A DNA stretch of 64,000 bases from an uncultured Gammaproteobacteria bacterium (GCA_963810755.1 CAWEOP010000001.1:89807-153806), one strand, 5' to 3'; counted from the first letter of the stretch, positions 27,057 to 64,000 are shown. Notes: generated by a model not told the origin, from the letters alone. Translations and numbers: made by a program.

Positions 27057-27239
27057 GGCGTCCCCCGCCTAAGTGCACTAGTACAATAATGCACTTATGC
27101 CGCTCGGTCAATTGGAAGAGCTGGGCGGCGCTCGAATTTGCGACGCGTATCACGCGACGCCGGCGCAAAGCGTCCGATCGATGCGTCAAATGCGCGCCGC
27201 CGTCGCAGCGCAACAACGCGCGGAACCCGGAGTGGCGAG

Positions 27240-28395: not shown

Positions 28396-28557
28396 CGCGG
28401 GCTCCCGGACGCGCTGTGGGATGGCTCGTACACTAGCACGCGATCGCGCGACGCAGCGTGCAGCACTCACGCTTTAGCCGCGCATCGATTGCCGCTACGC
28501 TATTGCGTAGGCTGAGCACTCGTGACCGTGACTTCCCTGATTCTCTCGGAGCATAGA

Positions 28558-30753: not shown

Positions 30754-30880
30754 TCAGCGCGCAATCCCGAACGGATACAACTCGGAGAAGTCAGCTGACT
30801 GACGGAAACGCACGTTGCGCGAAAGTCGGGTAGAGTCCGTTGCAAGAAACAACGCTAACGTTCGAACAAGGGAGAGCTCG

Positions 30881-35055: not shown

Positions 35056-35505
35056 ATGACTCGGCCGCGTTTCGGAATCTTGTTCGCCGTCGTCGCGGGC
35101 GTTGCGCTCGCATCGTTGCCCAGCGTGTTCGCCGCGGACTTCGTGATCATGAAGCCCGACCAAATCAAGTACGTGCCGAACGAGAATGGCACGGGACCCG
35201 ATATCGCCGTGATCTACGGCGACCCGACCAAGGCTGGCTTCTACATCATTCGCGCGCGCTTCAAACCCGGCGTCATGTCACGGCCGCACACGCATCCGAC
35301 CGACCGGCACGTGACCGTGATCTCCGGGACGTGGTGGGCCGGCACGGGCAAGACGTTCGACCCAAACAAGACGACGCCGCTCGGGGCCGGCAGCTACATG
35401 ATGCATCCCGCGAACGAGCCGCACTACGACGGCGCGAAAGACGTCGAGGCGATCGTCGAGATCAAGGGCATCGGCCCCGCGCCGAACGTGCCGGTAACGC
35501 AGTGA
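35056..35505 (+). CDS. secreted cupin-domain protein
   Basis: ATG at 35056 and a signal peptide. MSRPHTHPTDRHVTVISG and GSYMMHPANEPHYDG. Paralog of 12703..13155. Confidence 0.7.
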   Translation: MTRPRFGILFAVVAGVALASLPSVFAADFVIMKPDQIKYVPNENGTGPDIAVIYGDPTKAGFYIIRARFKPGVMSRPHTHPTDRHVTVISGTWWAGTGKTFDPNKTTPLGAGSYMMHPANEPHYDGAKDVEAIVEIKGIGPAPNVPVTQ

Positions 35506-35519
35506 GATTGGAGCCTTCG

Positions 35520-36791: not shown

Positions 36792-37323
36792 GGGAATCGC
36801 AATCGCCGCGGGCATTCTCGCTCTTGCGGGGCTGTCTCTCGCGGCAGCGCAGGAAGGACCCAAGCTCGGCGTGCCCGTCACGCAGGAGCAAATCGCGAGC
36901 TGGGACATCAGCGTCGGACCGGACGGGGCGGGTTTACCTCCGGGCAAGGGCAACGCCGTCACGGGCGCAGCGGTGTACCAGGCGAAATGCCTCGCGTGCC
37001 ACGGTGAGAAGGGCGCGGGCAAGCCGAGCGATCAGCTCGTGGGCGGGCAAGGCACACTGCGCGACGCAGCCGCCGTGCGAACGGTCGGCAGCTACTGGCC
37101 GTATGCGACGACGTTGTTCGACTACATCCGCCGCGCCATGCCGTACGTTCAGCCGCAGTCGCTCTCGCCGGACGAGATCTACGGCTTGTCGGCTTATCTG
37201 TTGTTCTTGAACGGCGTGATCGGCGAGAACGACGAGATGAACGCAACGTCGCTGCCGAACGTGAAGATGCCGAACCGCGATAGCTTCTTTTCCGTCTACA
37301 CGGAGCCGAAACACCGCCGCTAG
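36778..37323 (+). CDS. sorB: sulfite dehydrogenase cytochrome c subunit SorB (copy 1)
   Basis: Overlaps the sorA end by 14 nt. Signal peptide and heme motif CLACH. Confidence 0.8.
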   Translation: MSTSKGIAIAAGILALAGLSLAAAQEGPKLGVPVTQEQIASWDISVGPDGAGLPPGKGNAVTGAAVYQAKCLACHGEKGAGKPSDQLVGGQGTLRDAAAVRTVGSYWPYATTLFDYIRRAMPYVQPQSLSPDEIYGLSAYLLFLNGVIGENDEMNATSLPNVKMPNRDSFFSVYTEPKHRR

Positions 37324-47598: not shown

Positions 47599-48073
47599 AG
47601 GTGAAAACCGATTAGAAATAGGAAGGTGACGCCTGTTTCCGTCCGCCTCATTTAGGGCGCTTCCGATAAAACGACATCCTTCCAATAAACCGCCGCTCCA
47701 ATTCAATCGGAGCGGACGCGTATTCTAGCTTCTACCGGAGGGGTTTGGCGCGCTCCGCCTAATGGCGGTGGACACGCTCGGTGATGTTCGGGTCGGCACT
47801 ATTCGCTCCGCGAGCCGTGCCGCTACTCGCGTCACGGGTCATGCGGTAACGATCCCTCGTGCGTATATAGAATGAGCCGAGCAACGAATGCCGGTCTTGC
47901 CGCGGAGCCGGTGCTCCGACGCAAGCAAGCCGAATGTCTTTGGCGTGTGGATCGGCACGAACGGGTCCGACGCCGATCCACGCTATCGGAATACACCGTG
48001 GCCACTTGACCTACGCAAGATAGAATCTTCGAAACGCGCGAGCCGCGCGCTGCCATCTTCGAGGAGACTCACA

Positions 48074-48540
48074 ATGGCCATCAGCCTGAAGGTCAACGGG
48101 GCGACCCGCTCGGTCGATGCCGCGCCGGACACGCCGCTGCTCTACGTGCTGCGCAACGATCTCGAGCTCAATGGCGCCAAATACGGCTGCGCCATGACCC
48201 AATGCGGCGCCTGCACGGTGCTGGTCAACGGCGCGGCGACACGGTCCTGCGTGACGCCGGTCGGCTCGATCGAGGGAAACGAGGTGACCACGCTCGAAGG
48301 GCTCGGCACGCTCGACAAGCCGCACCCGCTGCAGAAGGCCTTCATCGATGAACAGGCGGCTCAGTGCGGCTATTGCGCGAGCGGCATGATCATGACGGCG
48401 GCCGACCTGCTCAACCGCAATCCGCAACCGCAGGAGGCGGACGTGCGGGCAGCGCTCGCCGACAATCTCTGCCGCTGCGGCACCCACAACCGGATCATCC
48501 GCGCGGTGCTACGCGCAGCAAAGGGGGCGGCAACGCCTGA
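48074..48540 (+). pseudogene. (2Fe-2S)-binding small subunit of a molybdopterin oxidoreductase (IorA-like), 3' end frame-disturbed
   Basis: GAGGAG upstream of the ATG at 48074. GCAMTQCGACTV, CGYCASGM and LCRCGTH motifs. The in-frame ORF runs on to 48853. A stop at 48538-48540 is reached only if one base is removed near the AAGGGGG run (48521-48527). Confidence 0.7.
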
Positions 48541-50746
48541 ATACCAAACGCCGCGACTTTCTCAAGTCCGCCGGCGGCATCGCCGTCGCCTTCAGCTGGA
48601 GCGTGCCGACAGTGCTCGCCCAGCAGGCGGCGCGTCCCGCTCTTCCCGGCAGCCTCGGCACCAACCGCATGCTGGACGGCTGGATCCGCATCAACCCGGC
48701 CGGCACGGTCACGGTGTTCACCGGCAAATGCGAGCTGGGCCAGGGCATCCTGACCGCGCTTGCGCAGATAGCGGCCGAGGAGCTGGACGTCGCGTACGAG
48801 CGCGTCGAGATGGTCTCGGCCGATACGGCGCGCACGCCCAACGAGGGGCATGACCGCCGGCAGCCTGTCGGTCGAGAACAGCGGCACGGCGCTGCGCTTC
48901 GCCTGCGCCGAGGCGCGCCAGATCCTGTTGCGAGCTGGCCGCCGCGAAGCTCGGCGTCGCCGTCGCCAACCTGTCCGTGTCGGACGGAACGGTGACCGGC
49001 TCCGGGAAGGTCACCTACTGGGAGCTCGCGCGCGAAGCGAACCTGAAGCGCGAGGCCTCGGCCCAGGCGAAGCCGAAACCGCCCGCGCAGCACAGGATAG
49101 TCGGCCGCAGCATCCCGCGCCGCGACATCCCGGCCAAGGTGACGGGCGGCGCCGCCTTCGTGCAGGACGTGCGGCTTCCCGGCATGGTGCATGGCCGCGT
49201 GGTGCGGCCGCCACGCTATGGCGCGCAGGCTCGAGTAGCTTCGACGAGGCCAGAGGTCAAGGCCATGCCGGGAGTCATCGCGGTGGTGCGTGACGGCAGC
49301 TTTCTCGGCGTGGTGGCACGAGCGCGAGGAGCAGGCGATCAATGCGCGGCTTGTGCTGATCGCGCTCGCCAAGTGGTCGGGCGGCTCCGAGCTGCCCGAT
49401 CCGGCGAAGCTGTACGAGCAGCTCATGTCCCTGCGCAGCGAGGACAGGGTGATCGGCGAGAAGGACGCGCCCGTGCCGGCCGGCGCGACGGTGATCGAGG
49501 CGACGTACCATCGGCCCTATCAGGCGCATGCCGCGATCGCGCCCTCCTGCGCGCGTGGCCGAGTTCAAGGACGGCAAGCTCACGGTCTGGACCCACAGCC
49601 AGGGCGTCTTCCCGCTGCGCGGCCACCCTCGCCAGGGCGCTCGGTCTGCAGCCGAGCGACGTCCGCTGCATCCACGCCGAAGGCGCCGGCTGCTACGGTC
49701 ACAACGGCGCCGACGACGTCGCCTTCGACGCCGCCATGCTGGCGCGCGCGGTCAATGGGCGGCCGGTACGGCTGCAATGGATGCGTGACGACGAGTTCAA
49801 GTGGGAGCCCTACGGCCCTGCCATGACCATGAAGGTCAAGGGCGCCGTCGCCGGCGGCCGCGTCGTCGACTGGGCCTTCGACGTCTGGAGCCAGAGCCAC
49901 AACATGCGGCCGGGCGATCCCGACGGTATCAACCTGCTCGGGAGCTGGTACCTCGCCGATGCGAAGCGGCCCGGGCCGGCGCGCCATGCCGCACAGCCGA
50001 ACGGCGCGGGCGACCGCAACGCGATCACGCTCTACGATTTCCCGCGCCAGCGCACCACGCACCACCTGATCATGGACAATCCGGTGCGCACCTCGGCGCT
50101 GCGCACGCTCGGCGCCTATGCCAACGTATTCGCGATCGAGTCCTTCATGGACGAGCTCGCGGCCGCCGCCGGCATCGACCCCGTGGCGTTCCGCCTCGCG
50201 CACATCAAGGACGAGCGCGAGCGCGCCGTGATCGAGGCCGTGGCCAGGGCCGCCGCCTGGAAACCGGGCGAGAAGGGCGACGGCCGGCGCGGCCGCGGTA
50301 TCGGCTATGCGCGCTACAAGACCGTGGCCACCTACGTTGCGGTGATAGCCGAGGTTGAAGTGAATCGCACCACCGGCGTCGTCAAGGTGCCGCGCATCTG
50401 GACCGCGGCCGATGCCGGGCAGATCATCAATCCCGACGGCCTGACCAACCAGATCGAAGGCGGCGTCATCCAGTCGACGAGCTGGACCCTGCACGAGCAC
50501 GTGCGATTCGACCGCAACGGGATTCTGTCGCAGGACTGGATGAACTATCCGATCCTGACCATGCCGGACGTGCCCAGGGTCGAGACCGTGCTCATCGACC
50601 GGCCGAACGAACGTGCGCTCGGTGCCGGCGAAGCCGCGCAAGGGCCGACGGCGGCCGCCATCGCCAATGCGTTCGCAGCGGCGACCGGCAGGCGCATCCG
50701 CGAGCTGCCGTTGACGCCCGAGCGGGTGAAGGCGGCCCTGGCGTAG
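48537..50746 (+). pseudogene. molybdopterin-binding large subunit (IorB/aldehyde oxidase-like), about 7 frame changes in the first half
   Basis: Tat-like ..KRRDFLKSAGGIAVAFSW has no usable ATG. Homology-like text hops between frames near 48850, 48940, 49215, 49245, 49310, 49555 and 49620, then is continuous to the stop at 50746. Confidence 0.7.
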
Positions 50747-50852
50747 CGATTGATCGGAGGCTGGCACTGGGCAGACTAAATACGGCCGCATATAGTGCGT
50801 GGGGATGTGATTCCGTCGTTTATTAGCAATGTCACTGCGAAGGGGGTACCCA

Positions 50853-52130
50853 ATGGATTCGAAACGAAACAGCCGTAGAGAGCTCCTCAAGTTCGGCGCC
50901 GCGTTAGCGGGTGGAGTCACGGTGGCCCTACGGGGTACGGCCCAAGCCCAAGAGCACAACCATCCGGCGACCCCAGGTAGCGAGAACGCCTCGCCGATGA
51001 TTCACGGCAGCAAGGAGCAGATCGAATACGGCCAGCGTTCCAAATACGTGACCTCCGTGCGCATGGCGCACCCCATGGGCGGCAGGCCGTCACCCGACGT
51101 GTTCGGCAAGGTGTTCCACGTGGCCACGCCGTTGCAGGATTCCGTTGGCGTGATCACGCCATCGTCGTTGCACTATGTCGCGACGACCCGCGGCTCCTAC
51201 CTGCCGGACATCGACCCGCAGCAGCACACGCTGACGTTACACGGCCTGGTGGATCGGCCGCTGACGCTCACCGTGGACGATTTGAAGCGCTTCCCGTCGG
51301 TCACCCGGCTGCACTTCATCGAGTGTGCGGGCAACCGGCACAATGGGGAGCAAAAGACCGTGCAGGAGACGCACGGCATGACGAGCTGCTCCGAATGGAC
51401 CGGCGTGCTGCTGTCCACGCTGCTCAAGGAATGCGGCCTGAAAGGCAGCGCGAAATGGTTCGTCGCTGAAGGCGCCGAGGAAGTAAAGGGCGCCTCGAGC
51501 ATTCCCATCGCCAAAGGGATGGACGACTGCCTCATCGCCTACGGCCAGAACGGCGAGCCCTTGCGGCCACAGCAAGGGTTTCCAGTGCGCATCATGGTCC
51601 CCGGATTCGAGGGCATCTACCACACCAAGTTTCTGCGGCGCATCAAGGTCGTCGACCGGTTCTACATGAACTACAACGAGTTCGGGCATCTGCGTCCGGA
51701 GGACAAAGAGCTTGCGCTCGGCGAACAGATCGGGCCCAAGTCGGTCATCACGTACCCGTCGGGCTCACAGCAGCTGCCCGGCCCCGGATTCTATGAGATC
51801 AGCGGGCTCGCCTGGTCCGGCGGCGGCGCCGTCAAGACCGTGGAAGTCTCCACCGATGGCGGGAAGAAGTGGAACCGCGCCGAGTTCAAGAACACTCCGC
51901 AACGCATGGCGCACGTGCGATTCGCCTACGAGTGGAGATGGGATGGAACCGAGACCGAGATTCTGTCGCGCTGCACCGACGAGATCGGGCAGAGGCAGCC
52001 AATGCGGGAGGAGATCGCCAATTGGTGGAAAGTACCCTTCGACCGGAACTACCGGGTGCCCGGGCTGGATAACAGCGTCATGCCCTGGAAAATCGCGACG
52101 GACGGGAGCGTGACCAATGGGCTCGCGTAA
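50853..52130 (+). CDS. sorA: sulfite dehydrogenase molybdopterin subunit SorA (copy 2)
   Basis: Tat signal SRRELLKFGAALAGG. ITPSSLHYV, FIECAGN and VPGFEGIYHTKFLRRI. Visibly lower GC than copy 1. Confidence 0.85.
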   Translation: MDSKRNSRRELLKFGAALAGGVTVALRGTAQAQEHNHPATPGSENASPMIHGSKEQIEYGQRSKYVTSVRMAHPMGGRPSPDVFGKVFHVATPLQDSVGVITPSSLHYVATTRGSYLPDIDPQQHTLTLHGLVDRPLTLTVDDLKRFPSVTRLHFIECAGNRHNGEQKTVQETHGMTSCSEWTGVLLSTLLKECGLKGSAKWFVAEGAEEVKGASSIPIAKGMDDCLIAYGQNGEPLRPQQGFPVRIMVPGFEGIYHTKFLRRIKVVDRFYMNYNEFGHLRPEDKELALGEQIGPKSVITYPSGSQQLPGPGFYEISGLAWSGGGAVKTVEVSTDGGKKWNRAEFKNTPQRMAHVRFAYEWRWDGTETEILSRCTDEIGQRQPMREEIANWWKVPFDRNYRVPGLDNSVMPWKIATDGSVTNGLA

Positions 52131-52713
52131 GACACTCAAGACGAGCGCGCTCAAGGTCGTCACGCTTCCGCTACTGCTGGGGAGCCTCATGGGGAGCCCC
52201 GCGATCGCGCAGTCACCCACCTATGGCGTAGGACGCACGCCGACCGCGGAAGAGCTCCGCCGCATGGACATCTCGATTGGGCCTACAGGAGAGGAACTCC
52301 CGCCCGGTCGCGGCACCGCCAAGGAAGGGGCACAGGTCTACGTGCAGAAGGCGTGCGTCGGCTGCCATGGCGTAGCGGGCCTTGGGGGATTGGCGCCCCC
52401 GTTGCAGTCGAAACAGGGCGCGGATGTTCCCGTCTGGAAAAAGGAGCGCATCCTGCCACTGCGCTCGCCGTATGCGACGACGGTGTGGGATTTCATCAAT
52501 CGCGGCATGCCACTCGGGCTGGAGGGGATTCTGACTCCCGACGAGGTCTACTCGTTGACGGCCTACCTGCTCTTCCTCAATAACGTGATTCCGGAGGATC
52601 AGGTACTAGACAAGCAGAGTCTGGCGGAGATCCGGATGCCGATTGGCGACGAATTCGGCAAACCGCATGAGTTCAAGCTCAACGCGCCAAGGCTCAAGGG
52701 TTACCCCTACTAG
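52117..52713 (+). CDS. sorB: sulfite dehydrogenase cytochrome c subunit SorB (copy 2)
   Basis: Overlaps the sorA copy-2 end by 14 nt. Signal peptide and heme motif CVGCH. Confidence 0.8.
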   Translation: MGSRKTLKTSALKVVTLPLLLGSLMGSPAIAQSPTYGVGRTPTAEELRRMDISIGPTGEELPPGRGTAKEGAQVYVQKACVGCHGVAGLGGLAPPLQSKQGADVPVWKKERILPLRSPYATTVWDFINRGMPLGLEGILTPDEVYSLTAYLLFLNNVIPEDQVLDKQSLAEIRMPIGDEFGKPHEFKLNAPRLKGYPY

Positions 52714-52952: not shown

Positions 52953-53357
52953 GTGACTGAACAGGACGACCGAGCCGATTTATTTACGGATGCCTTCTGC
53001 GCGTTCTTGCAGTCGTGCGTGATATCCGTCGACGCAGCGGAAGTGCTGCTCGTGCTGTGGCGAAAACCGACGTCAAACTGGTCCGTTAACGAGCTGGCTA
53101 CGTATCTTATTCCGATGGGGAGTGTCTCCGAACAGGAGGTGGCGCGGTGTATCGAAGTATTTCGAGAGCGAGGGTTGATCTTACGCACGGATGACGCACG
53201 CGTCAGTTATAAGTCCACTCCCGATTTCGACGTGCACGTCGAAAACCTTGCGCGACTCTACGTCGAACGCCCGGTCACGTTGGTTCGTATGATCTATGCC
53301 CTCCGGGATACGAAGATCAAAACCTTGGCTGATGCTTTCCGGATCTGGAGGAAGTGA
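52953..53357 (+). CDS. hypothetical soluble protein (possible winged-helix)
   Basis: GTG start, 134 aa. The AEVLLVLWRKP..WSVNELA......S...V..CIEVFRERGLI pattern suggests a wHTH. Its stop overlaps the next start (GTGA at 53354-53357). Confidence 0.5.
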   Translation: MTEQDDRADLFTDAFCAFLQSCVISVDAAEVLLVLWRKPTSNWSVNELATYLIPMGSVSEQEVARCIEVFRERGLILRTDDARVSYKSTPDFDVHVENLARLYVERPVTLVRMIYALRDTKIKTLADAFRIWRK

Positions 53358-53632
53358 CGGCGATGGAAGCATTCCGGTTTGCTCTTTTCGGGTTAGCTGC
53401 GCTCACCAGCATCGGCTGCATGTGGCTCCTTTTCCGTGGGTACTTTCGCAGCTCCGTGCGCCTGCTCTTTTGGGTTGCCCTGTGTTTCGTCTTCCTCTCG
53501 ATCAATAACGTCGTTCTTTTCGTAGATACGATTGTGCTTCCGACCCAAGTCGATCTGCGCATCGTGCGCCTTACTGCCGCAATCGCGGGCATTGCGTGCC
53601 TGCTCTATGCCTTCATCTGGGAATCGGATTGA
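53354..53632 (+). CDS. small three-helix membrane protein (possibly DUF5985-like)
   Basis: 92 aa with three hydrophobic helices. An alternative ATG lies at 53363. The stop shares one base with the next ATG (TGATG at 53630-53634). Confidence 0.5.
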   Translation: MTAMEAFRFALFGLAALTSIGCMWLLFRGYFRSSVRLLFWVALCFVFLSINNVVLFVDTIVLPTQVDLRIVRLTAAIAGIACLLYAFIWESD

Positions 53633-53901
53633 TGGACGTTCTGGTTAACTATCTCGCCGGTGCGGTGACTCTGGGTTATCTGGTGGCAAGTATGTTTTTT
53701 CTGCGGTTCTGGCGCAGAACAGGTGATCGTTTGTTTTTAGCGTTCGCGTTCGCGTTCGCGTTACTAGCGCTCAATCAGATTTTCGCGACGTTCATCGGAG
53801 CAGGCGACGAGAATGTCGTGTACGCGTATGTCCTGCGGGTCCTCGGATTCATGCTTATTCTCGCCGCCATCGTCGACAAGAATCTGTCGACGCGCCGATA
53901 G
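53632..53901 (+). CDS. small three-helix membrane protein, distant paralog of the preceding gene
   Basis: 89 aa. Helix spacing and the charged motif after TM1 (FLRFWRRTGD versus LLFRGYFRSS) resemble the previous gene. Confidence 0.5.
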   Translation: MDVLVNYLAGAVTLGYLVASMFFLRFWRRTGDRLFLAFAFAFALLALNQIFATFIGAGDENVVYAYVLRVLGFMLILAAIVDKNLSTRR

Positions 53902-54101
53902 GGGGGCGTGGCATGACTGCCAGGACCAGTCGCAAGTCGACGAAAGAGGCGGCGAAGCGAGCGCGGAGACTTTGAAGGCCTATTCGGCGAAGCTCGAGTC
54001 GCGTCGGGGTGAATATCGTCTCCGCAGCTCAGAACGAGCGAGGTGGTTGGCGCGTCGGCGGCGCCGCCGTGACGTCGAAGTGATTAACCGGAGGAGCGTA
54101 C

Positions 54102-54494
54102 ATGAGCTACTACATTGCCACGACGGTCGACGGCGCGTTCGATGACGTCGTCTCTCGAGTCATCGAAAGCCTCAAGACTCAGAACTTCGGCGTGCTCACT
54201 GACATTGACGTACAGGCGACGCTGAAATCCAAGATCGGCGCCGCTATCCCGCGCTACCGCATTCTCGGGGCCTGCAATCCCTCGTTCGCGCACGAAGCCT
54301 TAAAGCGCGAGGACAAGTTGGGTGTGCTGCTGCCGTGCAATGTGATCGTTCTGGAGACGGCAGATGGACGCGTCGAAGTGGCGAGTGTCGATCCAGTCGT
54401 CGCCATGGAGCGCACGGGCAATCGCGAGCTCGAAAGCACGGCGCGCGAAGTGCGCAAGCGCCTCGCGACGGTGATCGAGAGCATCGCACCGTAA
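54102..54494 (+). CDS. DUF302 domain protein
   Basis: 130 aa. ILGACNPSFAHEAL and LLPCNVIVLE motifs. Confidence 0.8.
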   Translation: MSYYIATTVDGAFDDVVSRVIESLKTQNFGVLTDIDVQATLKSKIGAAIPRYRILGACNPSFAHEALKREDKLGVLLPCNVIVLETADGRVEVASVDPVVAMERTGNRELESTAREVRKRLATVIESIAP

Positions 54495-54698: not shown

Positions 54699-55457
54699 TC
54701 AAACGACGCGCAACGTCTCGAAGGCGGTGAAGGCCGTGACGCAGAGCAGGAACGTACCGAAAACTCTGCGCAATCCGGTCGTCGGGACGCGGATGGCGAC
54801 CCACTGCCCGCCGGCACTTGCCGCGATTCCGACCACGACAAACACGCCGATCACCGACCAATCGACCGACATTGCGGATAGTGCAAGCAGGTGCAGATGC
54901 TTGGCGAAACCTACGGCAGAGCTGAATGCGATCACCACCAGGCTCGTGCCCATCGCCAGCCTCAAAGACAAGCCACTCAGTAGAACAAGGGCTGGGACCG
55001 CGAGAAATCCGCCACCGACGCCGACCATGCCGCTGAGCGTACCGATACCTATACCCGCAACTATCAGGCAACCGGGACGGCAGATGCGCGGCTGGAACTC
55101 GGTCTTGGTCAACATTTGATAGGAAGCAGGAATCAGCAGAGCCGCGAAGATCAAGAGTTGCACCGCCCCAGGGATCCACTGCGAGACCCAGGCGCCCAGA
55201 TAGGATCCTCCCATGGCCGACAACCCGAACCAGAGGACGATGCGCCAATCGACTTGCTTCATGACCGCACTCGAAACACCGCCCACAGCTGCGATCGCCC
55301 CGACTATCGCCAAGGACTCGGGGATCGCCACCTTCTCTGGATGACCCAATACAAAGACTAAGATCGGTACGGTGAGAATCGACCCGCCCGAGCCGAGCAA
55401 TCCCAGACTCGTACCGACGAGTAGCGCGCCGAGCGTCGGTGCGAGTAGGGCGATCAT
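54699..55457 (-). CDS. sulfite exporter TauE/SafE family membrane protein
   Basis: 252 aa with duplicated GxGGG motifs (LGSGGSILTVP and VGVGGGFLAVP) in a 7-8 TM protein. Confidence 0.85.
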   Translation of the reverse strand: MIALLAPTLGALLVGTSLGLLGSGGSILTVPILVFVLGHPEKVAIPESLAIVGAIAAVGGVSSAVMKQVDWRIVLWFGLSAMGGSYLGAWVSQWIPGAVQLLIFAALLIPASYQMLTKTEFQPRICRPGCLIVAGIGIGTLSGMVGVGGGFLAVPALVLLSGLSLRLAMGTSLVVIAFSSAVGFAKHLHLLALSAMSVDWSVIGVFVVVGIAASAGGQWVAIRVPTTGLRRVFGTFLLCVTAFTAFETLRVV

Positions 55458-55772
55458 CCGCGCGTCCTTCGCCGGTTGGCCCGGCGCGCCCTGTCGCTAC
55501 AGAAGATGTCGTGCAGGACCGACAGCACACGGCGCACGTCACCTTCCGGTATCGGAGTATCTGATCGTTTGCCCTTGACGCTCAGCGTCGACTAACCCGC
55601 CGTCGCGCAACACGCTCAGGTGTTGCGACAGTGCCGACTGACTCAGCTTCACCTTGCCGTTGAGCTCACCTACGGCAAGGGGCCTCTCGAGCAGGCTGCA
55701 CAGAATGCAGAGGCGTTGCTCATTCGCCAGCGCCTTGAGAAAGACCGTGGCTTCGCCAGCGTGCTCGAGCAT
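55454..55772 (-). pseudogene. ArsR-family persulfide-sensing repressor of the BigR/SqrR type, one frameshift
   Basis: FLKALANEQRLCILCSL...LSQSALSQHLSVLRDGGLV..RQGQTIRYS reads to a stop at 55539. In the +1 frame it continues PEGDVRRVLSVLHDIFCSD... to a TGA that overlaps the TauE ATG (ATGA). Confidence 0.7.
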
Positions 55773-55871
55773 TGTCCGCGGATTCGCGCGCGCCGAGCAG
55801 CACGGGAGGTCTTGCGGCTACGGGACGGCGGAGTGGTCGAGTAGTCTATAGTTTTCATGGCTCCATGATAC

Positions 55872-55902
55872 ATTAGGCTGTACTAAATTAGAAGAAACTA
55901 AT
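55872..55902. promoter_or_regulatory. two abutting inverted repeats, a candidate ArsR/BigR operator
   Basis: ATTAG-gctgta-CTAAA (55872-55887) and ATTAG-aagaaa-CTAAT (55887-55902) lie in a 37%-GC stretch of the divergent intergenic region. Confidence 0.4.
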
Positions 55903-56226
55903 ATTATCTAGCCGCGATCCTGGATCCCGTTCCTAGAAACCCTGTGGCACGAGTGCGCTGGTCGATTGGAGAGCGACATGAAATCGATACGGCCAATGAT
56001 CTACATCATGGTGTTTACGCTACTTCTCGGCGGGTGGCGCCACGTTGTACGCGCTCGCCTCCTCACGCTTTGATGAGCGCCCATTCGGGACGTTCGAGCG
56101 ACGACCAGAAAACAGCGTAGGCGTTGCGCAAGCGTTCTGCGTGGCAGGCAGTACGTACTTGTTCTTATCGACCGAGGCGAGCTACTCGATCGATCCTGAC
56201 CACCCAGTCGATCGCGGAGAATCTAT

Positions 56227-56427
56227 ATGACTATCGATCGCGCCGTTCTCGCCTTTGCCGGCACGGTAGTGCTGATCAGCCTCGTCCTAGGCATTTACGT
56301 CCACTACAACTGGTTCTGGTTGACCGCTTTCGTCGGTGCAAACCTGCTGCAGTCGTCGTTCACGGGTTTCTGCCCGCTGGCAATCATCCTGAAGAAGCTG
56401 GGCGTCCGTCAGGGCGCCGCATTCTGA
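56227..56427 (+). CDS. DUF2892 (YgaP-like) small membrane protein
   Basis: 66 aa with two TM helices. R..L..AG..V.....L.........W.....F.G.NL.QS.FTGFCP pattern. Confidence 0.8.
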
Positions 56428-56458
56428 TGACTTCGGACGCGCGACCACGTCGATCTTC

Positions 56459-57526
56459 GTGAGCCGCGAGCGAACTCGCTATTCGCGTCGTATCGCCGCC
56501 TCGTTAACGGTGCTCTCTGTGGCGCTTGGCGCAAAGCTGCTCCATGCCGCCGAGCCGCTGCCGACGCTAGTCGTCGAGCGCGTGCTGGCACCGCTCGAGC
56601 GCCGCGTCGACGGCACCATCGAGGCCGTCAACCAGGGAACGGTATCCGCTCAGACTTCGGGGCGAGTGATCGAAGTGCTATACGACGTGAACGACTTTGT
56701 GCCGGCGGGCGCCGTGATTATCCGGCTCGGCAGCGCTGAGCAAAAGGCCGGGCTCGACGAGGCGCAGGCCGGGCTGACGGAAGCGACGGCGCGTGACGCC
56801 GAGGCAAGAGCCCGTTTCGATCGCGTCGCCGGGCTGTTCGAAGATCGCGCGGTATCGCGCCAACAATACGATCAGGCGCTGGCCGACCGGGACGCCGCGG
56901 GTGCGAGACTCGTCGCCGCCCGTGCCGCGCTCACGAGCGCTCGCGAAGGCGTGAGCTACACGGAGATTCGGGCGCCCTACGCGGGCGTCGTCACGCGTCG
57001 TCACGTGGAAGCGGGCGAGGCGGTGCGGCCCGGAACGCCGCTCATGAGCGGACTCTCTCTGCAGTATTTGCGGGTTGCCGCCGAGTTGCCACAAAGCGTC
57101 GTCGAGCGCGTGCGCGAGATACGCAAAGCCGCCGTCTATGTCGACGGCCGCCGCGTGGAGGCCAAGAGCTTGACGCTCTCGCCGCAGGCCTCTCCTGAAT
57201 CGAGCAGCTTCCTCGTGCGGCTCGAGTTGCCGGAGAACGCCGCAGCGCTCTATCCCGGCATGTTCGTCAAGGTGGCATTCGTGGTCGGCGAGGCGGAGCG
57301 TTTGCTGATTCCCGCGGACGCCCTCGTCGAGCGCAGCGAGATGACCGCCGTCTACGTCCAAGGCGCCGACGGCGAGGTCGCTCTGCGGCAGTTGCGCCTC
57401 GGCCATCGATTCGAGGACAAAGTCGAAGTGCTTGCGGGACTCGAGTCCGGAGAAACAATCGTCACCGATCCGCTCGCAGCGCTCGAGCACCTGCGCAGTC
57501 CCAACGCGCGTAGCGAACCGAACTGA
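56459..57526 (+). CDS. efflux RND transporter periplasmic adaptor subunit
   Basis: GTG start and signal/anchor. Lipoyl and hairpin pattern (..V..G..V..G..L..ld......l..A.A.l..A.a.....) followed by beta-barrel regions. Confidence 0.85.
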   Translation: MSRERTRYSRRIAASLTVLSVALGAKLLHAAEPLPTLVVERVLAPLERRVDGTIEAVNQGTVSAQTSGRVIEVLYDVNDFVPAGAVIIRLGSAEQKAGLDEAQAGLTEATARDAEARARFDRVAGLFEDRAVSRQQYDQALADRDAAGARLVAARAALTSAREGVSYTEIRAPYAGVVTRRHVEAGEAVRPGTPLMSGLSLQYLRVAAELPQSVVERVREIRKAAVYVDGRRVEAKSLTLSPQASPESSSFLVRLELPENAAALYPGMFVKVAFVVGEAERLLIPADALVERSEMTAVYVQGADGEVALRQLRLGHRFEDKVEVLAGLESGETIVTDPLAALEHLRSPNARSEPN

Positions 57527-57528
57527 CC

Positions 57529-60500
57529 ATGGACGCGTCGCCGCTAGGCACGAGCGGACGAATCGCGCGCCTTTTCCTCACTAACGAGCTCACGCCGTTA
57601 CTAGCGGTCGCTGCGATGTTGCTCGGCGTCTTCGCTGTCCTCGTGACGCCGCGCGAAGAAGAGCCTCAGATCGACGTCACGATGGCGAACATCGTCGTGC
57701 CGTTCCCGGGTGCTAGCGCGCCGCAGGTCGAGAGTCTCGTCGCCTCGCCGATGGAGCAGGTGCTCGGCGAGATCGACGGCGTCAAGCACGTGTACTCCGT
57801 ATCCCGCCCGGGCGCCGCCGTCCTCACGGTTCAGTTCGAGGTGGGCGAGGCCCGCAACGAAGCCATCGTTCGCTTGTACAACGCCGTGTACTCGAATCGC
57901 GATTGGCGCCCCGCGGGCCTCGGCGTCCTCGAACCCATCATCAAGCCCAAGGGTATCGACGACGTTCCGGTGTTGTCGCTGACCTTGTGGACGCGCGACG
58001 CGGACCGCGGCGCGCATGAGTTGCGTCAGGTCGCGCACGCGATCGAGGCCGAGATCAAACGCGTTCCCGGAACACGCAACGTGTACACGATCGGCGGACC
58101 GGACGACACCGTGCACGTGTCGCTGGACCCGCAGCGGCTGGCGGGCCATGGTCTGACGGCGCTCGCCCTCGTGCAGTCGCTGCAAGCCGCCAATGTCGTG
58201 TTGCAGGCCGGGGATCTCGTCGGCGTCAAGGGTGTCGCGCCGGTTCAGGCGGGGGAATTCCTAGCGCACCGCGACGACGTGGCGGAAGTCGTCGTCGGCC
58301 TGAAGAACGGCCGGCCCGTGTACTTGGAAGACGTCGCCGACGTTCGCGCCGGACCCGACCAACCCGAGCAATACGTGAAATTCGGCGCCGGCGCGGCGGC
58401 GCTGAGCCGCGGCATCGAATTGGCCGGGGATGCGCCCGCGGTGACCATCGCCGTGTCGAAGCAGCCGGGACGCAGCGCCATCGATGTCACCGATCAGGTG
58501 ATTGCGCGAATTGCGGCGCTTCGGGGCACCTACATTCCCGAAGGCGTCGAGATGACGGTGACCCGCAATTATGGCGACACCGCGAACGACAAGGCGCAAA
58601 AGCTGATTCAGAAGCTGCTGTTTGCCACGGCCTCCGTGATCGTGCTCGTGATCGTTGCGGTGGGCTGGCGCGAGGCGATCGTCGTCGGGACGGCCGTCAT
58701 CGTGACGCTGGCAGCCACGCTGTTCGCCTCTTGGGCATGGGGCTTCACGATCAATCGTGTGTCGCTATTCGCGCTGATCTTCTCGATCGGCATTCTCGTC
58801 GACGACGCCATCGTGGTCGTCGAGAACATTCATCGCCGCCTGCGGCTCGGCGGCGGATCGCCCGACGAGATCGTGCCGCGCGCCGTCGACGAGGTCGGCG
58901 GTCCGACCATCCTCGCGACCTTCACCGTGATCGCCGCGCTTCTCCCGATGGCGTTCGTGAGCGGGCTCATGGGTCCGTACATGGCTCCGATCCCGATCAA
59001 CGCGAGCATGGGGATGCTGATCTCGTTGGCCGTCGCGATCGTGTTTACGCCGTGGTTGTCGCGTCGGCTGCTCGGCGGGCTGCGGCCTGCACCGGGCGGG
59101 CATGATGCCGGGCAAGCGCGGCTCGACCGGCTCGCGGCAACCGTGCTCGGCAAGTTTCTGCGCGGCGCCGCGAGCCGCAAATACCGCCATCGCCTATATG
59201 CGGGAATCGGCATCGCGATCCTCCTCGCGATCTCGCTCGCCGGCGTGCAGTGGGTCGTCATGAAGATGCTGCCGTTCGACAACAAGTCCGAGTTCCAGAT
59301 CGTCGTCGACATGCCGGAGGGCACCGCGCTCGAGAGCACGGCGCGCGTGCTGGACGAGCTCGCCGCGGCCGTCGCGGCCGTTCCGGAAGTGACCGATTAC
59401 CAGATCTACGCCGGCACGGCCGCACCGATCAACTTCAACGGTCTCGTGCGCCAGTACTACCTGCGTACCGGCCCGACGGTCGGCGACATCCAGGTGAACC
59501 TGACCGACAAGCATGAGCGGGACCGGCAGAGTCACGACATCGCGATCGCCGCCCGGCCGATGCTCGCCGAAATCGGGCGACGCTACGGCGCGACGGTACA
59601 GGTAGTCGAGGTGCCGCCGGGTCCTCCGGTGCAGGCGCCGATCGTCGCCGAGATCTATGGCCCGTTCTACGAAGCGACGCGCACAGTCGCCTTGAAGGTC
59701 CGTGACGTGTTCACGGCGACACCGGACATCGTCGACGTCGATTCGAGCATCGAAGCTCCTGCGAGGCGCTTCGTCGTTGCGGTGGACCGCGGCAAAGCCG
59801 CGGTGCTCGGAGTGAGTCAGGAAAGCGCGGCGAGAACGCTCGCGCTCGCGCTGTCGGGTGGGGACGTCACCTACCTTCGCGCGGGTCGGGAGCGCTATCC
59901 AGTGCCGGTGCGCCTCGAGCTGCCGGTCGCCGAGAAAGGCGACCTCGGCGACGTGCTCGCCCTGGAAGTACCGTCCACTCGCGGCATCGGAATCCCGCTC
60001 TCGGAAATCGTCACCGTTCGCGAAGCGGTTTGGGAAGCCGCGATTTACCACAAGGATCTGCTCCCCGTTGCGTACGTCACAGGCGACATGGCGGGCGACA
60101 TCGACAGCCCGCTCTACGGAATGTTCAGGATCATCGGCCGGCTCGGGGAGAGCGGCGAGGCGATCGAGCAGCGTTTCATTACGCAGCCCACCGACCCGCA
60201 AGGTTTCTCGATCAAGTGGGACGGCGAATGGCAGATCACCTACGAGACGTTTCGCGACATGGGGCTCGCGTATTCGGTAGGCCTCATCCTCATCTACTTG
60301 TTGGTAGTGGCGCAGTTCAAGTCGTACGCCGTGCCGCTTGTGATCATGGCGCCGATCCCGCTCACCATCATCGGAGTGATGCCGGGTCACGCATTGCTCG
60401 GTGCCCAGTTCACGGCGACTTCGATGATCGGCATGATCGCGCTCGCGGGCATCATCGTGCGCAATTCGATATTGCTCGTCGACTTCATCAATCTCGAGGT

Positions 60501-60738
60501 CGCCGCGGGGCGCGAGCTGACCGATGCCGTCATTCGTGCGGCCGCGGTGCGGGCTAAGCCGATCGTTCTCACGGGGTTGGCGGCCATGGTCGGCGCCTTC
60601 TTCATTCTCGATGATCCGATCTTCAACGGACTCGCGGTGTCGCTGATCTTCGGCATTCTCGTTTCCACCGCGCTCACGCTCATCGTCATTCCGATCCTCT
60701 ACGCGAGCTATTTGCGCAGGTTCGGAGTCGCCCCATAA
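57529..60738 (+). CDS. efflux RND transporter permease (AcrB/CzcA superfamily)
   Basis: 1069 aa. Two repeats of 1+5 TM helices with large periplasmic loops. FSIGILVDDAIVVVENI motif. Confidence 0.9.
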   Translation: MDASPLGTSGRIARLFLTNELTPLLAVAAMLLGVFAVLVTPREEEPQIDVTMANIVVPFPGASAPQVESLVASPMEQVLGEIDGVKHVYSVSRPGAAVLTVQFEVGEARNEAIVRLYNAVYSNRDWRPAGLGVLEPIIKPKGIDDVPVLSLTLWTRDADRGAHELRQVAHAIEAEIKRVPGTRNVYTIGGPDDTVHVSLDPQRLAGHGLTALALVQSLQAANVVLQAGDLVGVKGVAPVQAGEFLAHRDDVAEVVVGLKNGRPVYLEDVADVRAGPDQPEQYVKFGAGAAALSRGIELAGDAPAVTIAVSKQPGRSAIDVTDQVIARIAALRGTYIPEGVEMTVTRNYGDTANDKAQKLIQKLLFATASVIVLVIVAVGWREAIVVGTAVIVTLAATLFASWAWGFTINRVSLFALIFSIGILVDDAIVVVENIHRRLRLGGGSPDEIVPRAVDEVGGPTILATFTVIAALLPMAFVSGLMGPYMAPIPINASMGMLISLAVAIVFTPWLSRRLLGGLRPAPGGHDAGQARLDRLAATVLGKFLRGAASRKYRHRLYAGIGIAILLAISLAGVQWVVMKMLPFDNKSEFQIVVDMPEGTALESTARVLDELAAAVAAVPEVTDYQIYAGTAAPINFNGLVRQYYLRTGPTVGDIQVNLTDKHERDRQSHDIAIAARPMLAEIGRRYGATVQVVEVPPGPPVQAPIVAEIYGPFYEATRTVALKVRDVFTATPDIVDVDSSIEAPARRFVVAVDRGKAAVLGVSQESAARTLALALSGGDVTYLRAGRERYPVPVRLELPVAEKGDLGDVLALEVPSTRGIGIPLSEIVTVREAVWEAAIYHKDLLPVAYVTGDMAGDIDSPLYGMFRIIGRLGESGEAIEQRFITQPTDPQGFSIKWDGEWQITYETFRDMGLAYSVGLILIYLLVVAQFKSYAVPLVIMAPIPLTIIGVMPGHALLGAQFTATSMIGMIALAGIIVRNSILLVDFINLEVAAGRELTDAVIRAAAVRAKPIVLTGLAAMVGAFFILDDPIFNGLAVSLIFGILVSTALTLIVIPILYASYLRRFGVAP

Positions 60739-60749
60739 GGAGGCTCGTC

Positions 60750-62018
60750 ATGGCGCACATCATCGTTTTGGGAGCAGGAATCGGCGGCGTTCCGAGCGTT
60801 TACGAGTTGCGAAAGCGTCTCGGAAAAGCGCACCGGATCACCTTGATAGGCTCGAGCCCGTTCTTCGAGTTCACGCCGTCGAATCCGTGGATCGCCGTCG
60901 GCTGGCGGACGCGCGAAAAGACCCGCGTGGAGATGGCGGGACCGCTCGCGAAGCACGACATCGACTGGATCCCGCAGCTCGCTACCGCGATCGATGCCCA
61001 GCAATCGACTGTCGCCCTCGCCGACGGACGCGTCCTCAGGTACGACTACCTCGTGATCGCAACGGGTCCGAAGCTCGCATTCGACGAGGTGCCGGGGCTC
61101 GGGCCGGCTGCGCATACGCAGTCCGTCTGCACGCATACCCATGCCGCCGACGCTTGGGAGCGCTATGAGGAGTTTCTGAAGAATCCGGGACCGATCGTCG
61201 TGGGTGCGGCGGCCGGCGCCAGCTGCTTCGGCCCCGCCTACGAATTCGCGATGATCCTCGATACGGATCTGCGCAAACGCAAGCTACGCGACCGCGTTCC
61301 AATGACGTTCGTCACGAGCGAGCCGTATGTCGGCCACATGGGCTTAGGGGGAGTCGGCGACAGCAAAGGGCTCATGGAGGGCGAGTTTCGGCAGCGGCAC
61401 ATCAAGTGGATCACGAACGCGAAGATTCTCGGCGTCACGGCCGGGCAGCTGCAGGCGGCCGAGTACGGCGAGGACGGCGTGATCAAGAAGCAACACGAGC
61501 TGCCTTTTGCGTACAGCATGGTCATACCGGCTTTTCGGGGAGTAGACGCGGTGGCCGCTGTGCCGGGGCTGTGCAATCAACGCGGCTTCGTGATCATCGA
61601 CGCGCACCAACGCAGCCCGAAGTACCGGAACATATTCTCGGCCGGTGTGTGCGTTGCGATCCCGCCGGTCGAATCGACCATCGTGCCCACCGGAGCTCCG
61701 AAGACCGGCTACATGATCGAATCGATGGTAAGCGCGGTCTGTAGCAACATCGCCGCCGAAATCGAGGGTAAGCCCGCAGAGGCTCGCGCCACCTGGAACG
61801 CGATCTGTCTCGCCGACTTCGGCGATACGGGCGCCGCATTCGTCGCCTTGCCGCAAATTCCGCCGCGCAACGTGACTTGGGCAAAGGTCGGCAAGTGGGT
61901 GCACCTCGGTAAAGTCGCCTTCGAGAAGTATTTCCTGCGCAAGGTTCGCACCGGCAACGTCGTGCCGGTCTACGAGAAATACGTTCTCAAGGCGCTCGGC
62001 ATCGAGCCGCTGAAATGA
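60750..62018 (+). CDS. sqr: sulfide:quinone oxidoreductase (type I-like)
   Basis: AAGGAGG (60737-60743) upstream. N-terminal IIVLGAGIGG FAD fold. The three cysteines SVCTHTH, GASCFGPAYEF and NAICLADFG align with my memory of the Acidithiobacillus ferrooxidans SQR, and similarity is near full length. Confidence 0.85.
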   Translation: MAHIIVLGAGIGGVPSVYELRKRLGKAHRITLIGSSPFFEFTPSNPWIAVGWRTREKTRVEMAGPLAKHDIDWIPQLATAIDAQQSTVALADGRVLRYDYLVIATGPKLAFDEVPGLGPAAHTQSVCTHTHAADAWERYEEFLKNPGPIVVGAAAGASCFGPAYEFAMILDTDLRKRKLRDRVPMTFVTSEPYVGHMGLGGVGDSKGLMEGEFRQRHIKWITNAKILGVTAGQLQAAEYGEDGVIKKQHELPFAYSMVIPAFRGVDAVAAVPGLCNQRGFVIIDAHQRSPKYRNIFSAGVCVAIPPVESTIVPTGAPKTGYMIESMVSAVCSNIAAEIEGKPAEARATWNAICLADFGDTGAAFVALPQIPPRNVTWAKVGKWVHLGKVAFEKYFLRKVRTGNVVPVYEKYVLKALGIEPLK

Positions 62019-63321
62019 ACCCGGGCATCGTGAGGCGAGCGGCGTCGCGTCTGGTGGTGTGGCTCGGCGCGGTGACGGCGGTTGCCGCGCGCGGGCGCCG
62101 AGACGCTCGACGACGGGTGGGCTCTCGCCGAGGCGAATGATCTCGGACTCGCGGCTGCGCGAACCGAGGCGGACGCGGCGGAGCTTGATGTGCAGGCGGC
62201 GCGCGGCGAGCGACGCCCCGTGCTGATGGCGACCGGGAGCTTCACTCAGCTGGCGGACGCGCCGGCGTTCAGCTTCGGGGCGATCGCTCTGCCGGAGATC
62301 TTCGACCACGATAACTACGTGCTCGCTGGGCTGAATGTGAACTTGCCTCTCTACACGGGCGGGCGCATTGCAAGCCGGATAGGAGCCGCGGAAGCGGGAG
62401 GCTCGGCACGCAATGCCGCCGCCGAAGCAGCAAAGATGGATTTGCGGCTGGCGGTGGCTGAGAGCTATGTCGCGGTGTTGCGGGCCCAGCGCGCGCTGGC
62501 CGTGGCGCAGAGCAATGTCGCGAGTCTCACGGACTACCTGCGCGATGTGCAATCGATGTTCAATCGCGAGGTCGTGCCGCGCAATGACCTGTTGTCCGCC
62601 CAGGTTGCGTTGGCGAATGCGGAGCAGGGTCGGCTGCAATCGGCCAACGGCCTCGAGCTCGCACGGGCGGCCTACAACCGGCGCATCGGTCAGCCGCTGG
62701 ATCGAGCGTTCGAGCTGAGCCCGATTACGTCGGTGGCCGGGCCGGATCTCGCGGGCGCTGCCGCTCGCGGAGCTTGAAGCCAAAGCGCAGGCAGCGCGTG
62801 CCGAAATCGCCGTGCTCGATGCTCAGGGACAGGCTCTGGGTTACGCAGCGGAGGCGGAGCGCTCCCGCCGGCTTCCGCAAGTCAGTCTGTCAGGTGGGTA
62901 TCAGTATCTCGAGAATGAAGCGCTGGATCGGCAAGAGTTCGCGATGGTGGCCGTCGACTTGAAGTGGGCTGTGTTTGACGGCGGGCAGACACGTAATCGC
63001 AGCGACAGCCTTCGTCTCAGTCAGCGCGCTAACGAGCGGAGGCTTGCGGATTTGCGTTCGATGCTAGCGCTGGAAGTGCGCCAAGCCTGGTACAGCTTGC
63101 AGGAGTCCCGAGCCCGCATCGACGTTGCGCGCGACGCCGTCGAGCAGTCGGAGGAGAGCCTGCGCATCGCGACTCAGCAATACGGAGCGGGCCTCGTCAA
63201 CAGCACGCGCGTGCTCGAAGCGGAGGCCTCGCGCACGTTGAGCCGCAGCAACCGTGAGAATGCGTTGCTCGATGCTGAGGTGGCCCGCATGCGGCTGGCT
63301 CGAGCTGTCGGGGGCCTCTAG
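62015..63321 (+). pseudogene. TolC-family outer-membrane efflux factor, at least 2 frameshifts
   Basis: The ATG overlaps the sqr stop (ATGA 62015-62018). Signal peptide MNPGIVRRAASRLVVWLGAVTAVAA. The frame changes near 62085-62095 and near 62755-62775. Two TolC-like repeats are recognisable (..LRLAVAESYVAVLRAQ.. and ..LALEVRQAWYSLQESR..). Confidence 0.75.
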
Positions 63322-63420
63322 TTTTCGGCATGAAGCCGCCCGTTTTTGGGCAGACTGCGGAGATTGCCGCGTCGGCGGTTGTTGGAAGAGCGGGAGCGGT
63401 TTGCTCACGAAGGAGTTGTC

Positions 63421-63954
63421 ATGATTAGAGGTTCTCAGATACGCAAGCTCGGCTACGCATCCCAGGTCGCGATGGGACTTCTGGTTGCATCGTTCGGGAT
63501 GGGGCTAGCGCTTGCCCAATCGACGGATTTACCGAACCGCAAAGATCCTCTCGAGGGGATTACGACTGCCGGGCAGCCTAGTGGCCAACAGTTCGCGGCG
63601 GCTGCGGCATCCGGCTTCAAATCAGTTATCGATTTGCGCGGACCACAAGAGGATCGCGGCATGGATGAGAAGGCCGCGGTCGAGGCGCTCGGCATGAGCT
63701 ACATTAGTTTGCCCGTCGAAGGCGCCGGCGGCGTTACCTACGGCAACGCGGCTGCGCTGGACAAGCTGCTCGCTGATCTACCGCGTCCGGTATTGATTCA
63801 TTGCAGTACGGGCAACCGCGCTGGCGCGCTCTTGGCTTTGCGAGCGAAGCTCAATGGCGCCGATAGCGAATCGGCGCTCGCCCTCGGGTTGGCAGGAGGC
63901 GTTACAGCCTTGAAGCCAACCGTGGAGCAAAAGCTCGCGCAAGGGCACGATTGA
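63421..63954 (+). CDS. secreted DUF442/TIGR01244-type phosphatase-like (sulfur-transferase-like) protein
   Basis: AAGGAG upstream of the ATG at 63421, signal peptide LLVASFGMGLALA, and CX5R loop IHCSTGNRAG. Confidence 0.75.
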   Translation: MIRGSQIRKLGYASQVAMGLLVASFGMGLALAQSTDLPNRKDPLEGITTAGQPSGQQFAAAAASGFKSVIDLRGPQEDRGMDEKAAVEALGMSYISLPVEGAGGVTYGNAAALDKLLADLPRPVLIHCSTGNRAGALLALRAKLNGADSESALALGLAGGVTALKPTVEQKLAQGHD

Positions 63955-64000
63955 TCGCGCGTAACAGTTCGCCGATCGAACGTCCTGCATTGTCGACACG

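Follow-up and report, generated by a model that had tools for sequence, protein, structure and literature searches.

We analysed a 64,000-nucleotide (nt) stretch of DNA from an uncultured Gammaproteobacteria bacterium (GCA_963810755.1, CAWEOP010000001.1:89807-153806), hereafter the window, in which a gene for sulfide:quinone oxidoreductase (SQR) lies inside an operon for an RND efflux system. All coordinates are positions in this window, and gene identities come from searches of Pfam, NCBIfam and the PDB. The operon, on the plus strand throughout, has the order DUF2892, adaptor, RND permease, type I SQR, TolC-like channel. Its first gene (56227-56427) encodes a DUF2892, or YgaP-like, two-helix membrane protein of 66 amino acids (aa; Pfam YgaP-like_TM, E = 3e-13). 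Next come an RND periplasmic adaptor, or membrane fusion protein (MFP; 56459-57526), matching TIGR01730 RND_mfp at 205 bits (cutoff 94.9) as well as Pfam HlyD_D23, and, after a spacing of 2 nt, a permease of a distinct HAE1-like subfamily (57529-60738; ACR_tran PF00873, E = 7e-151, residues 22-1059). The sqr gene (60750-62018) encodes 422 aa and was identified by matches to solved SQR structures. The last gene (62015-63321) specifies a TolC-like outer membrane factor (OMF) with a signal peptide and without a lipobox, both halves of which match Pfam OEP (1e-28 and 2.5e-29).

The junctions on either side of sqr are tight. A Shine-Dalgarno sequence, AAGGAGG (60737-60743, plus strand), read directly from the DNA, overlaps the TAA stop codon of the permease gene (60736-60738), and the sqr ATG follows at 60750, 11 nt after that stop. 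At the other end, the sqr stop and the OMF start share the tetranucleotide ATGA (62015-62018). An earlier note on this DNA had described both junctions and had concluded that sqr is embedded in the efflux operon and translationally coupled to it. Our reading agrees on all three counts, and short gaps and stop/start overlaps recur in relatives. The spacing shows one tightly packed predicted transcription unit, from the DUF2892 gene to the TolC-like gene. Four neighbours absent from the earlier note, namely the DUF2892 gene, a divergent ArsR-TauE gene pair, an operator and a DUF442 gene, extend this picture.

The flavoprotein aligns with the SQR of A. ferrooxidans (3SZ0) over residues 2-422 (E = 2.9e-154) and with that of A. 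aeolicus (3HYV, 2.5e-115), whereas matches to other SQR types are much weaker (the human type II enzyme at about 1e-11, 3H8I at 1e-19). Cys127, Cys159 and Cys353 occupy the aligned positions of the catalytic Cys128/160/356 (A. ferrooxidans numbering), and the FAD-binding GxGxxG motif is present as VLGAGIGG at residues 6-13. By homology, the protein is assigned as a type I SQR. The type I SQR of R. capsulatus is reported to be periplasmic, as cited in a 2023 paper (PMC9995734). Elsewhere in the window, an open reading frame (ORF) of 422 aa suspected of encoding a second SQR (14068-15336) turned out to specify a serine beta-lactamase-family protein.

The permease is less easily placed among named pumps. 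Its best NCBIfam model is RND_permease_2, at 455 bits and under the cutoff of 1250, and it scores 226.6 bits against the CusA/CzcA model TIGR00914 (cutoff 701). The closest structures are TriC, OqxB, MexK and MdtB, all at about 1e-70. Transmembrane helix 4 (TM4) reads VDDAIVVVEN, which is of HAE1 type when set against the HME-type motif, and its Asp-Asp motif GILVDDAIVVVEN is invariant among 47 orthologues, across which 208 of 1069 positions are conserved at 98% or more. Because of the structure matches, the model scores below cutoffs and the TM4 Asp-Asp pair, the permease is best classed as HAE1-like, in a separate and unnamed subfamily, and not as a heavy-metal pump. Such a TM4, unlike one of the HME pattern, makes an amphiphile or hydrophobe a more probable cargo than a metal cation. 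Of the remaining parts of the tripartite set, the adaptor is intact; the OMF gene is frame-broken in the window and intact in a close relative (locus L082, whose RND protein is 88% identical to that of the window), and in many relatives the operon lacks such a gene altogether.

The small protein that opens the operon matches the transmembrane domain of E. coli YgaP (2MPN, E = 2.5e-7), and a Cys in its GFCP motif is invariant among related loci. Divergent from the operon, on the minus strand, lie a two-cysteine ArsR regulator of the SqrR/BigR/HlyU/YgaV clade (55454-55772) and, downstream of it, a TauE/SafE-family membrane protein of the sulfite-exporter family (54699-55457; Pfam TauE, E = 4e-43). 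The ArsR stop (55454-55456) overlaps the TauE start, and the pair is also found in L082. The intact ArsR orthologue of that locus (82% identical) matches the structures of HlyU (4e-24), YgaV (9e-17), BigR (1e-16) and SqrR (6e-15), and both its cysteines align with the Cys pair of these proteins, one in helix 2 and one in the C-terminal helix; in the window protein the second Cys is situated beyond a frame break. The Cys pair is kept across the gammaproteobacterial loci. Since ArsR proteins of the SqrR/BigR/HlyU type are persulfide sensors (PMC12423496), the window ArsR is likely a persulfide-sensing-type regulator of the operon. The Comamonadaceae loci instead carry a CstR-like repressor of the CsoR family, which has two Cys and lacks a His at position C-4. 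A second ArsR subgroup also occurs beside the pump, without the helix-2 Cys and with a C-terminal LCDLVCG (CxxxC) motif (L044, L057, L042, L100-L103, L107, L109, L113-L115, L121, L129 and L140).

A putative promoter with a palindromic operator and a -10-like box (55878-55912, plus strand) was recognised by its conservation in relatives. The window palindrome, TACTAAATTAGAA at 55881-55893, is followed by the -10-like TAATATTAT; the family consensus is TGCTAA-N-TTAGCA. It is kept in 11 of 11 aligned intergenic regions between ArsR and DUF2892 genes, and in about 20 loci it precedes the leading gene of the operon, whether DUF2892 or SQR, by 50-160 nt. Counted over all loci, the motif is about as frequent as in shuffled sequence, so that it is informative through its promoter position only. 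From that position we infer a candidate operator for the ArsR protein. The locus contains no SqrR-type operator (ATTC-N8-GAAT), and a scan of 55400-64000 for consensus promoters and terminators gave nothing above shuffles. Between the promoter and the DUF2892 start, the leader (55913-56226) is about 330 nt long, compared with about 60-160 nt in relatives, and holds a 31-codon ORF (55979-56074, MKSIRPMIYIMVFTLLLGG...); an Rfam search of 55400-56600 found no RNA family.

About 100 nt beyond the OMF gene lies a gene for a periplasmic DUF442/TIGR01244 sulfurtransferase-like protein with an HCSTGNRAG motif and an N-terminal signal peptide (63422-63954, plus strand; Pfam BLH_phosphatase 1.8e-9; TIGR01244 2.4e-12, below cutoff). 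It may possibly be co-transcribed with the pump operon. DUF442 homologues with signal or lipoprotein sequences are also found downstream of the RND gene in three other loci (L033, L039 and L041).

We assessed the conservation of the arrangement from the SQR side with the 80 closest SQR loci of public genomes, one genome per species and with SQR identities of 61-81%, seeking the orthologous RND and adaptor genes up to 8 kb from sqr. Both were found at 52 of the 80 loci (RND identity 57-88%), and the RND gene at 27 of the 34 loci with at least 7 kb of flanking sequence on each side of sqr. The DUF2892 gene is present at 47 of the 80. In 27 of 32 related loci, 1-36 nt separate the RND gene from sqr, and sqr-OMF stop/start overlaps of the form ATGA, GTGA or TGATG recur. 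A search for the MFP-RND-sqr-OMF synteny in other genomes had been proposed in the earlier note; the pairing clearly recurs and is not unique to this assembly.

The linkage takes at least six gene orders. Steroidobacteraceae-like genomes have the order of the window, DUF2892-MFP-RND-SQR-OMF, while Lysobacterales place SQR-DUF2892-MFP-RND beside an ArsR gene. In Comamonadaceae the order is MFP-RND-SQR-DUF2892, in Polaromonas and Burkholderiaceae MFP-SQR-RND-DUF2892, and in Woeseiaceae-like genomes SQR-OMF-MFP-RND; Aeromonas caviae has SQR-DUF2892 divergent from ArsR..MFP-RND. The last locus (L166) is on NZ_AP026896.1, a scantly annotated 4.9-Mb sequence filed as a plasmid in PLSDB that is evidently a chromosome. 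In five betaproteobacterial loci (L064, L071, L083, L093 and L097), sqr unusually splits the normally adjacent adaptor-permease pair, the same order as has been described for Azospira suillum. Pump and SQR have thus been kept together through at least six orders in Gamma- and Betaproteobacteria, and their pairing is beyond chance. In the SQR tree, pump-linked enzymes form large clades, and unlinked enzymes belong mostly to dedicated sulfur oxidisers (Thiobacillus, Chromatiaceae, Sedimenticola).

Because sqr sits in the pump operon, and because the pairing recurs under sulfur-sensing repressors, the pump is a good, though unproven, candidate for exporting sulfur made by SQR. Its parts deserve separate weight. 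The pump is very probably a partner of sulfide oxidation that is regulated by reactive sulfur species. We hold evenly balanced the broader reading, in which this is a sulfide/reactive-sulfur detoxification operon whose dedicated tripartite RND system, co-expressed with type I SQR, would expel a sulfide-oxidation product. Zero-valent sulfur as the cargo is a tentative assignment, a little short of even. In the proposed mechanism, SQR at the inner membrane would convert H2S to quinol and zero-valent sulfur, as polysulfide or S8, and the persulfides formed would release the repressor. The pump would then take up a sulfide-oxidation product located in the membrane or periplasm and expel it through the outer-membrane channel; the likeliest cargo would be S8, polysulfide, or a small organic persulfide or polysulfide. 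Such efflux would limit the build-up of sulfane sulfur alongside persulfide dioxygenase (PDO), rhodanese and sulfite oxidation, and not in their place.

The last point departs from the earlier note, which saw no PDO in the locus and took this to fit a strategy of export instead of oxidation. The observation itself stands, since no PDO was found among the ORFs scanned across the 64 kb of the window. The one MBL-fold ORF among them (30815-31804), at first suspected of encoding a PDO, is SoxH-related. The conclusion drawn from it fares less well. In Lysobacterales loci, genes for rhodanese (18 loci) and a Blh-type PDO (11 loci) divergently adjoin sqr-DUF2892-MFP-RND, and the PDO of one of these loci (L041) aligns with the dioxygenase portion of Blh (E = 5e-87). 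The window also contains two genes for SoxC-type sulfite dehydrogenases (35331-36791 and 50829-52130), the first at 559 bits, above the NCBIfam equivalog cutoff, and the second at 394 bits, just below it; the scan of window ORFs turned up no further sox genes. A cytochrome c gene (52117-52713) comes after the second SoxC-type gene, and an ORF with no NCBIfam match (36778-37323) after the first. Given the PDO and rhodanese genes of relatives, and the DUF442 protein, TauE protein and two SoxC-type dehydrogenases of the window, oxidation and export look complementary. That the window has no PDO gives no support to an alternative export strategy.

The system has been glimpsed before. Mehta-Kolte et al. 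(mBio 2017; PMC5358917) reported an operon of Azospira suillum PS, Dsui_3440-3443, that encodes a hypothetical protein, an RND pump, an SQR and an MFP. Its log2 expression rose with H2S from about 1-4 to about 9-10.5, it was the one operon that Bar-seq flagged under H2S, and it is reported to matter for fitness in the presence of sulfide (PMC5358917). By its published description it has the same four gene families, in the order MFP-SQR-RND-small protein of the five betaproteobacterial loci named above; the window differs in its order, DUF2892-MFP-RND-SQR-OMF, and in having its own OMF gene. A 2025 survey mentions in passing RND pumps beside two-Cys ArsR regulators as "likely" sulfur transporters (PMC12423496). 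The view of the earlier note that such a route had not been described thus holds in part: a like operon and a passing mention were already in print, and our literature search found no dedicated study of S0, polysulfide or sulfane-sulfur export by RND systems, nor any substrate test. An RND system of the sulfide/reactive-sulfur response has therefore been glimpsed in the literature and is uncharacterised.

Several observations weigh against reading the pump as an exporter of SQR-made sulfur. When 80 metagenome loci were picked with the RND protein of L071 as query, a type I SQR was nearby in only 12; the pump is therefore not dedicated to an adjacent SQR. Genes for TrxC (9 loci), an AhpD-like CMD protein (8) and OsmC (6) recur beside it and fit a broader role in thiol/peroxide stress. 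Conserved cysteines were sought in the 47 RND orthologues and none was found, so that the permease provides no covalent sulfur relay. Deletion of the Azospira operon left the rate of perchlorate-linked sulfide oxidation unchanged (PMC5358917); orthology with that operon was judged by annotation and gene order only.

The main rival builds on several of these points. It holds that the DUF2892-adaptor-RND module is a general pump for thiol, electrophile or organic-peroxide stress, which would share a sensor with SQR and export a lipophilic by-product (oxidised lipids, quinone-thiol adducts or organic polysulfides have been considered) without carrying the product of SQR. Besides the scarcity of type I SQR and the TrxC, OsmC and AhpD-like neighbours in the pump-picked sample, it can draw on the 4 of 20 well-flanked loci of that sample that lack any sulfur or redox marker, and on Azospira, where sulfide also induces an alkylhydroperoxidase and several further RND pumps (PMC5358917). 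It explains less well why sqr stands inside the pump operon, at times even separating adaptor from permease, and is translationally coupled there, or why the linkage survives repeated rearrangement. Sulfur-specific neighbours also tell against it: 12 of the 20 well-flanked loci have at least one sulfur marker, counting SQR (type I or III-like), rhodanese, PDO, SorAB, DUF442 and YeeE. We judge a general stress pump rather unlikely.

The remaining neighbours in the pump-picked sample show which partners are stable. The adaptor is present at 66 of the 80 loci and the DUF2892 gene at 34, followed by ArsR-type regulators (24), an OMF (14), rhodanese (9), CstR-like regulators of the CsoR family, again with two Cys but without the C-4 His (5), and SorAB (2); a distant SQR-like flavoprotein is found at 5 further loci. 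Cultured examples agree. On plasmid 1 of P. denitrificans PD1222 (L164, 181960-199109), a PDO-DUF2892-YeeE-DUF6691-DUF442 operon is separated by an ArsR gene from cyt c-cyt b-DUF2892-MFP-RND, with a convergent TAT-signal flavoprotein gene (best match, the type III SQR model) and a DUF5368 gene. This locus holds two DUF2892 genes, one in the PDO-YeeE-DUF6691-DUF442 operon and one with the cyt c-cyt b..MFP-RND genes. An Azospirillum locus has DUF2892 beside MFP-RND-rhodanese and an ArsR gene, with TrxC close by. Because of this sample and these cultured examples, SQR is a frequent partner and not an obligate one, and the core unit, as far as gene neighbourhoods tell, is DUF2892-MFP-RND under a sulfur-type sensor.

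A second rival, export of metal sulfides or of chalcophile metal ions mobilised by sulfide, follows the suggestion of metal-sulfide or general stress efflux made by the Azospira authors (PMC5358917). Many metal sensors belong to the ArsR and CsoR families, and the adaptor matches CzcB/NccB below threshold (151 bits, cutoff 319). The permease, however, scores 455 bits with a multidrug RND model against 227 bits for CusA/CzcA, and its VDDAIVVVEN motif sides with HAE1 pumps over the HME motif. On the sensor side, the Cys pair of the ArsR protein is that of SqrR/BigR, and the Cu-ligand His is missing from the CsoR-like protein. No metal-resistance genes recur in the neighbourhoods. Because of the types of pump and sensor, a metal-sulfide role is very improbable.

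The weakest rival turns on the frame breaks. The earlier note had warned of at least two in the TolC-like gene of this assembly, and two single-base shifts can indeed be located, near 62085-62095 and 62750-62760, both in G+C-rich runs. They split the OMF coding sequence over three frames (from 62015, 62082-62777 and 62812-63321) that have no internal stops besides these shifts and that, when joined, run colinear with the OMF of L082, an intact protein of 438 aa whose gene shares the ATGA overlap. The ArsR gene has a 1-nt break near 55550 that cuts off the C-terminal helix and the second sensing Cys (frame A, M..RLCILC..TIRYS; frame B, PEGDVRRVLSVLHDIFC). An unrelated 3-hydroxyisobutyrate-dehydrogenase gene is split alike (22665-23156 and 23143-23544), and L081 and L082, sister contigs of a single metagenome assembly, have similar breaks in sqr and COX1. 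Because other window genes and the sister contigs are broken in the same way, and because the OMF is intact in L082, the OMF breaks are most likely assembly indel errors and not gene decay; the source of the window appears to be an indel-prone assembly. An accidental or decaying arrangement, with an OMF pseudogene and a non-functional tripartite pump, would account for the two OMF breaks and the ArsR break but not for these parallels, nor for the intact and highly conserved state of the remaining operon genes, and is barely credible.

We return to a pump that would carry a product of sulfide oxidation and compare it with known systems. Canonical sqr-pdo(-rhodanese) loci under SqrR, BigR, CstR or FisR (Xylella bigR-blh, the S. 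aureus cst locus, the R. capsulatus SqrR regulon) share SQR and a repressor of the same clade with the window, and the Lysobacterales relatives likewise carry an adjacent Blh-type PDO and rhodanese. The window operon differs from them in its RND system and DUF2892 gene, with no PDO found in the window. With HAE1 pumps such as AcrAB-TolC, MexAB-OprM, TriABC-OpmH, MdtABC and OqxAB it has in common an adaptor, a 12-TM permease with the TM4 Asp-Asp proton relay and a TolC-like channel, whose gene is frame-broken in the window. Its permease is nevertheless similar to the named families only at about E-70, far below the NCBIfam cutoffs. This type of pump is predicted to be under sulfur-sensor control in place of TetR or MarR; its operon includes an enzyme gene, and DUF2892 is its constant partner. 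E. coli ygaVP likewise combines a two-Cys ArsR (YgaV) with a DUF2892 membrane domain, the one in 2MPN that the window protein matches; in YgaP, however, a rhodanese is fused to DUF2892, whereas the 66-aa window protein is free-standing, without rhodanese, and is followed by RND and SQR genes. TauE/SafE sulfite exporters and PmpAB/YeeE-YedE thiosulfate-type transporters belong to the same regulons (TauE here, YeeE/DUF6691 in P. denitrificans). They act across the inner membrane only, whereas the RND system would cross the outer membrane from the periplasm or membrane.

It is still an open question how Gram-negative cells release zero-valent sulfur, and the origin of the extracellular S0 of R. 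capsulatus was stated to be unknown in 2023 (PMC9995734). A pump family that appears to be co-regulated with sulfide oxidation is a concrete candidate for this exit. Its study would add an envelope-level step to models of sulfide detoxification that have until now ended at the inner membrane, and would suggest a likely physiological role for an unnamed RND subfamily and for free-standing DUF2892 proteins. In the strongest form of the idea, the DUF2892-adaptor-RND(-TolC) system would be the missing outer-membrane route, a dedicated exporter of elemental sulfur or polysulfide for the zero-valent sulfur that SQR or enzymes of FCSD type produce at the inner membrane, with the DUF2892 Cys perhaps acting as a membrane-embedded sulfur acceptor. 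We regard this form as doubtful; if true, it would account for the deposition of sulfur outside the cell and for sulfane-sulfur homeostasis in many non-sulfur proteobacteria. Tractable carriers of the pump family are Aeromonas caviae, Paracoccus denitrificans PD1222, Azospirillum and Azospira suillum.

Some further genes of the window may be recorded. The stretch 47888-50746 encodes [2Fe-2S] and molybdopterin-binding subunits of the xanthine-dehydrogenase/aldehyde-oxidase family; the large-subunit ORF (589 aa) looks N-terminally short and may conceal a further frame break. The stretch from the sulfite dehydrogenase to TauE (52953-54494) holds a small group of uncharacterised genes, namely an unassigned 134-aa ORF, tandem genes for two DUF5985 membrane proteins (53354-53632 and 53596-53901) and a DUF302 gene (54102-54494). 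Finally, on the minus strand at 26956-28470 and unrelated to the pump operon, an ORF contains a type VI secretion system Tle1-like phospholipase effector domain (E = 2e-31).

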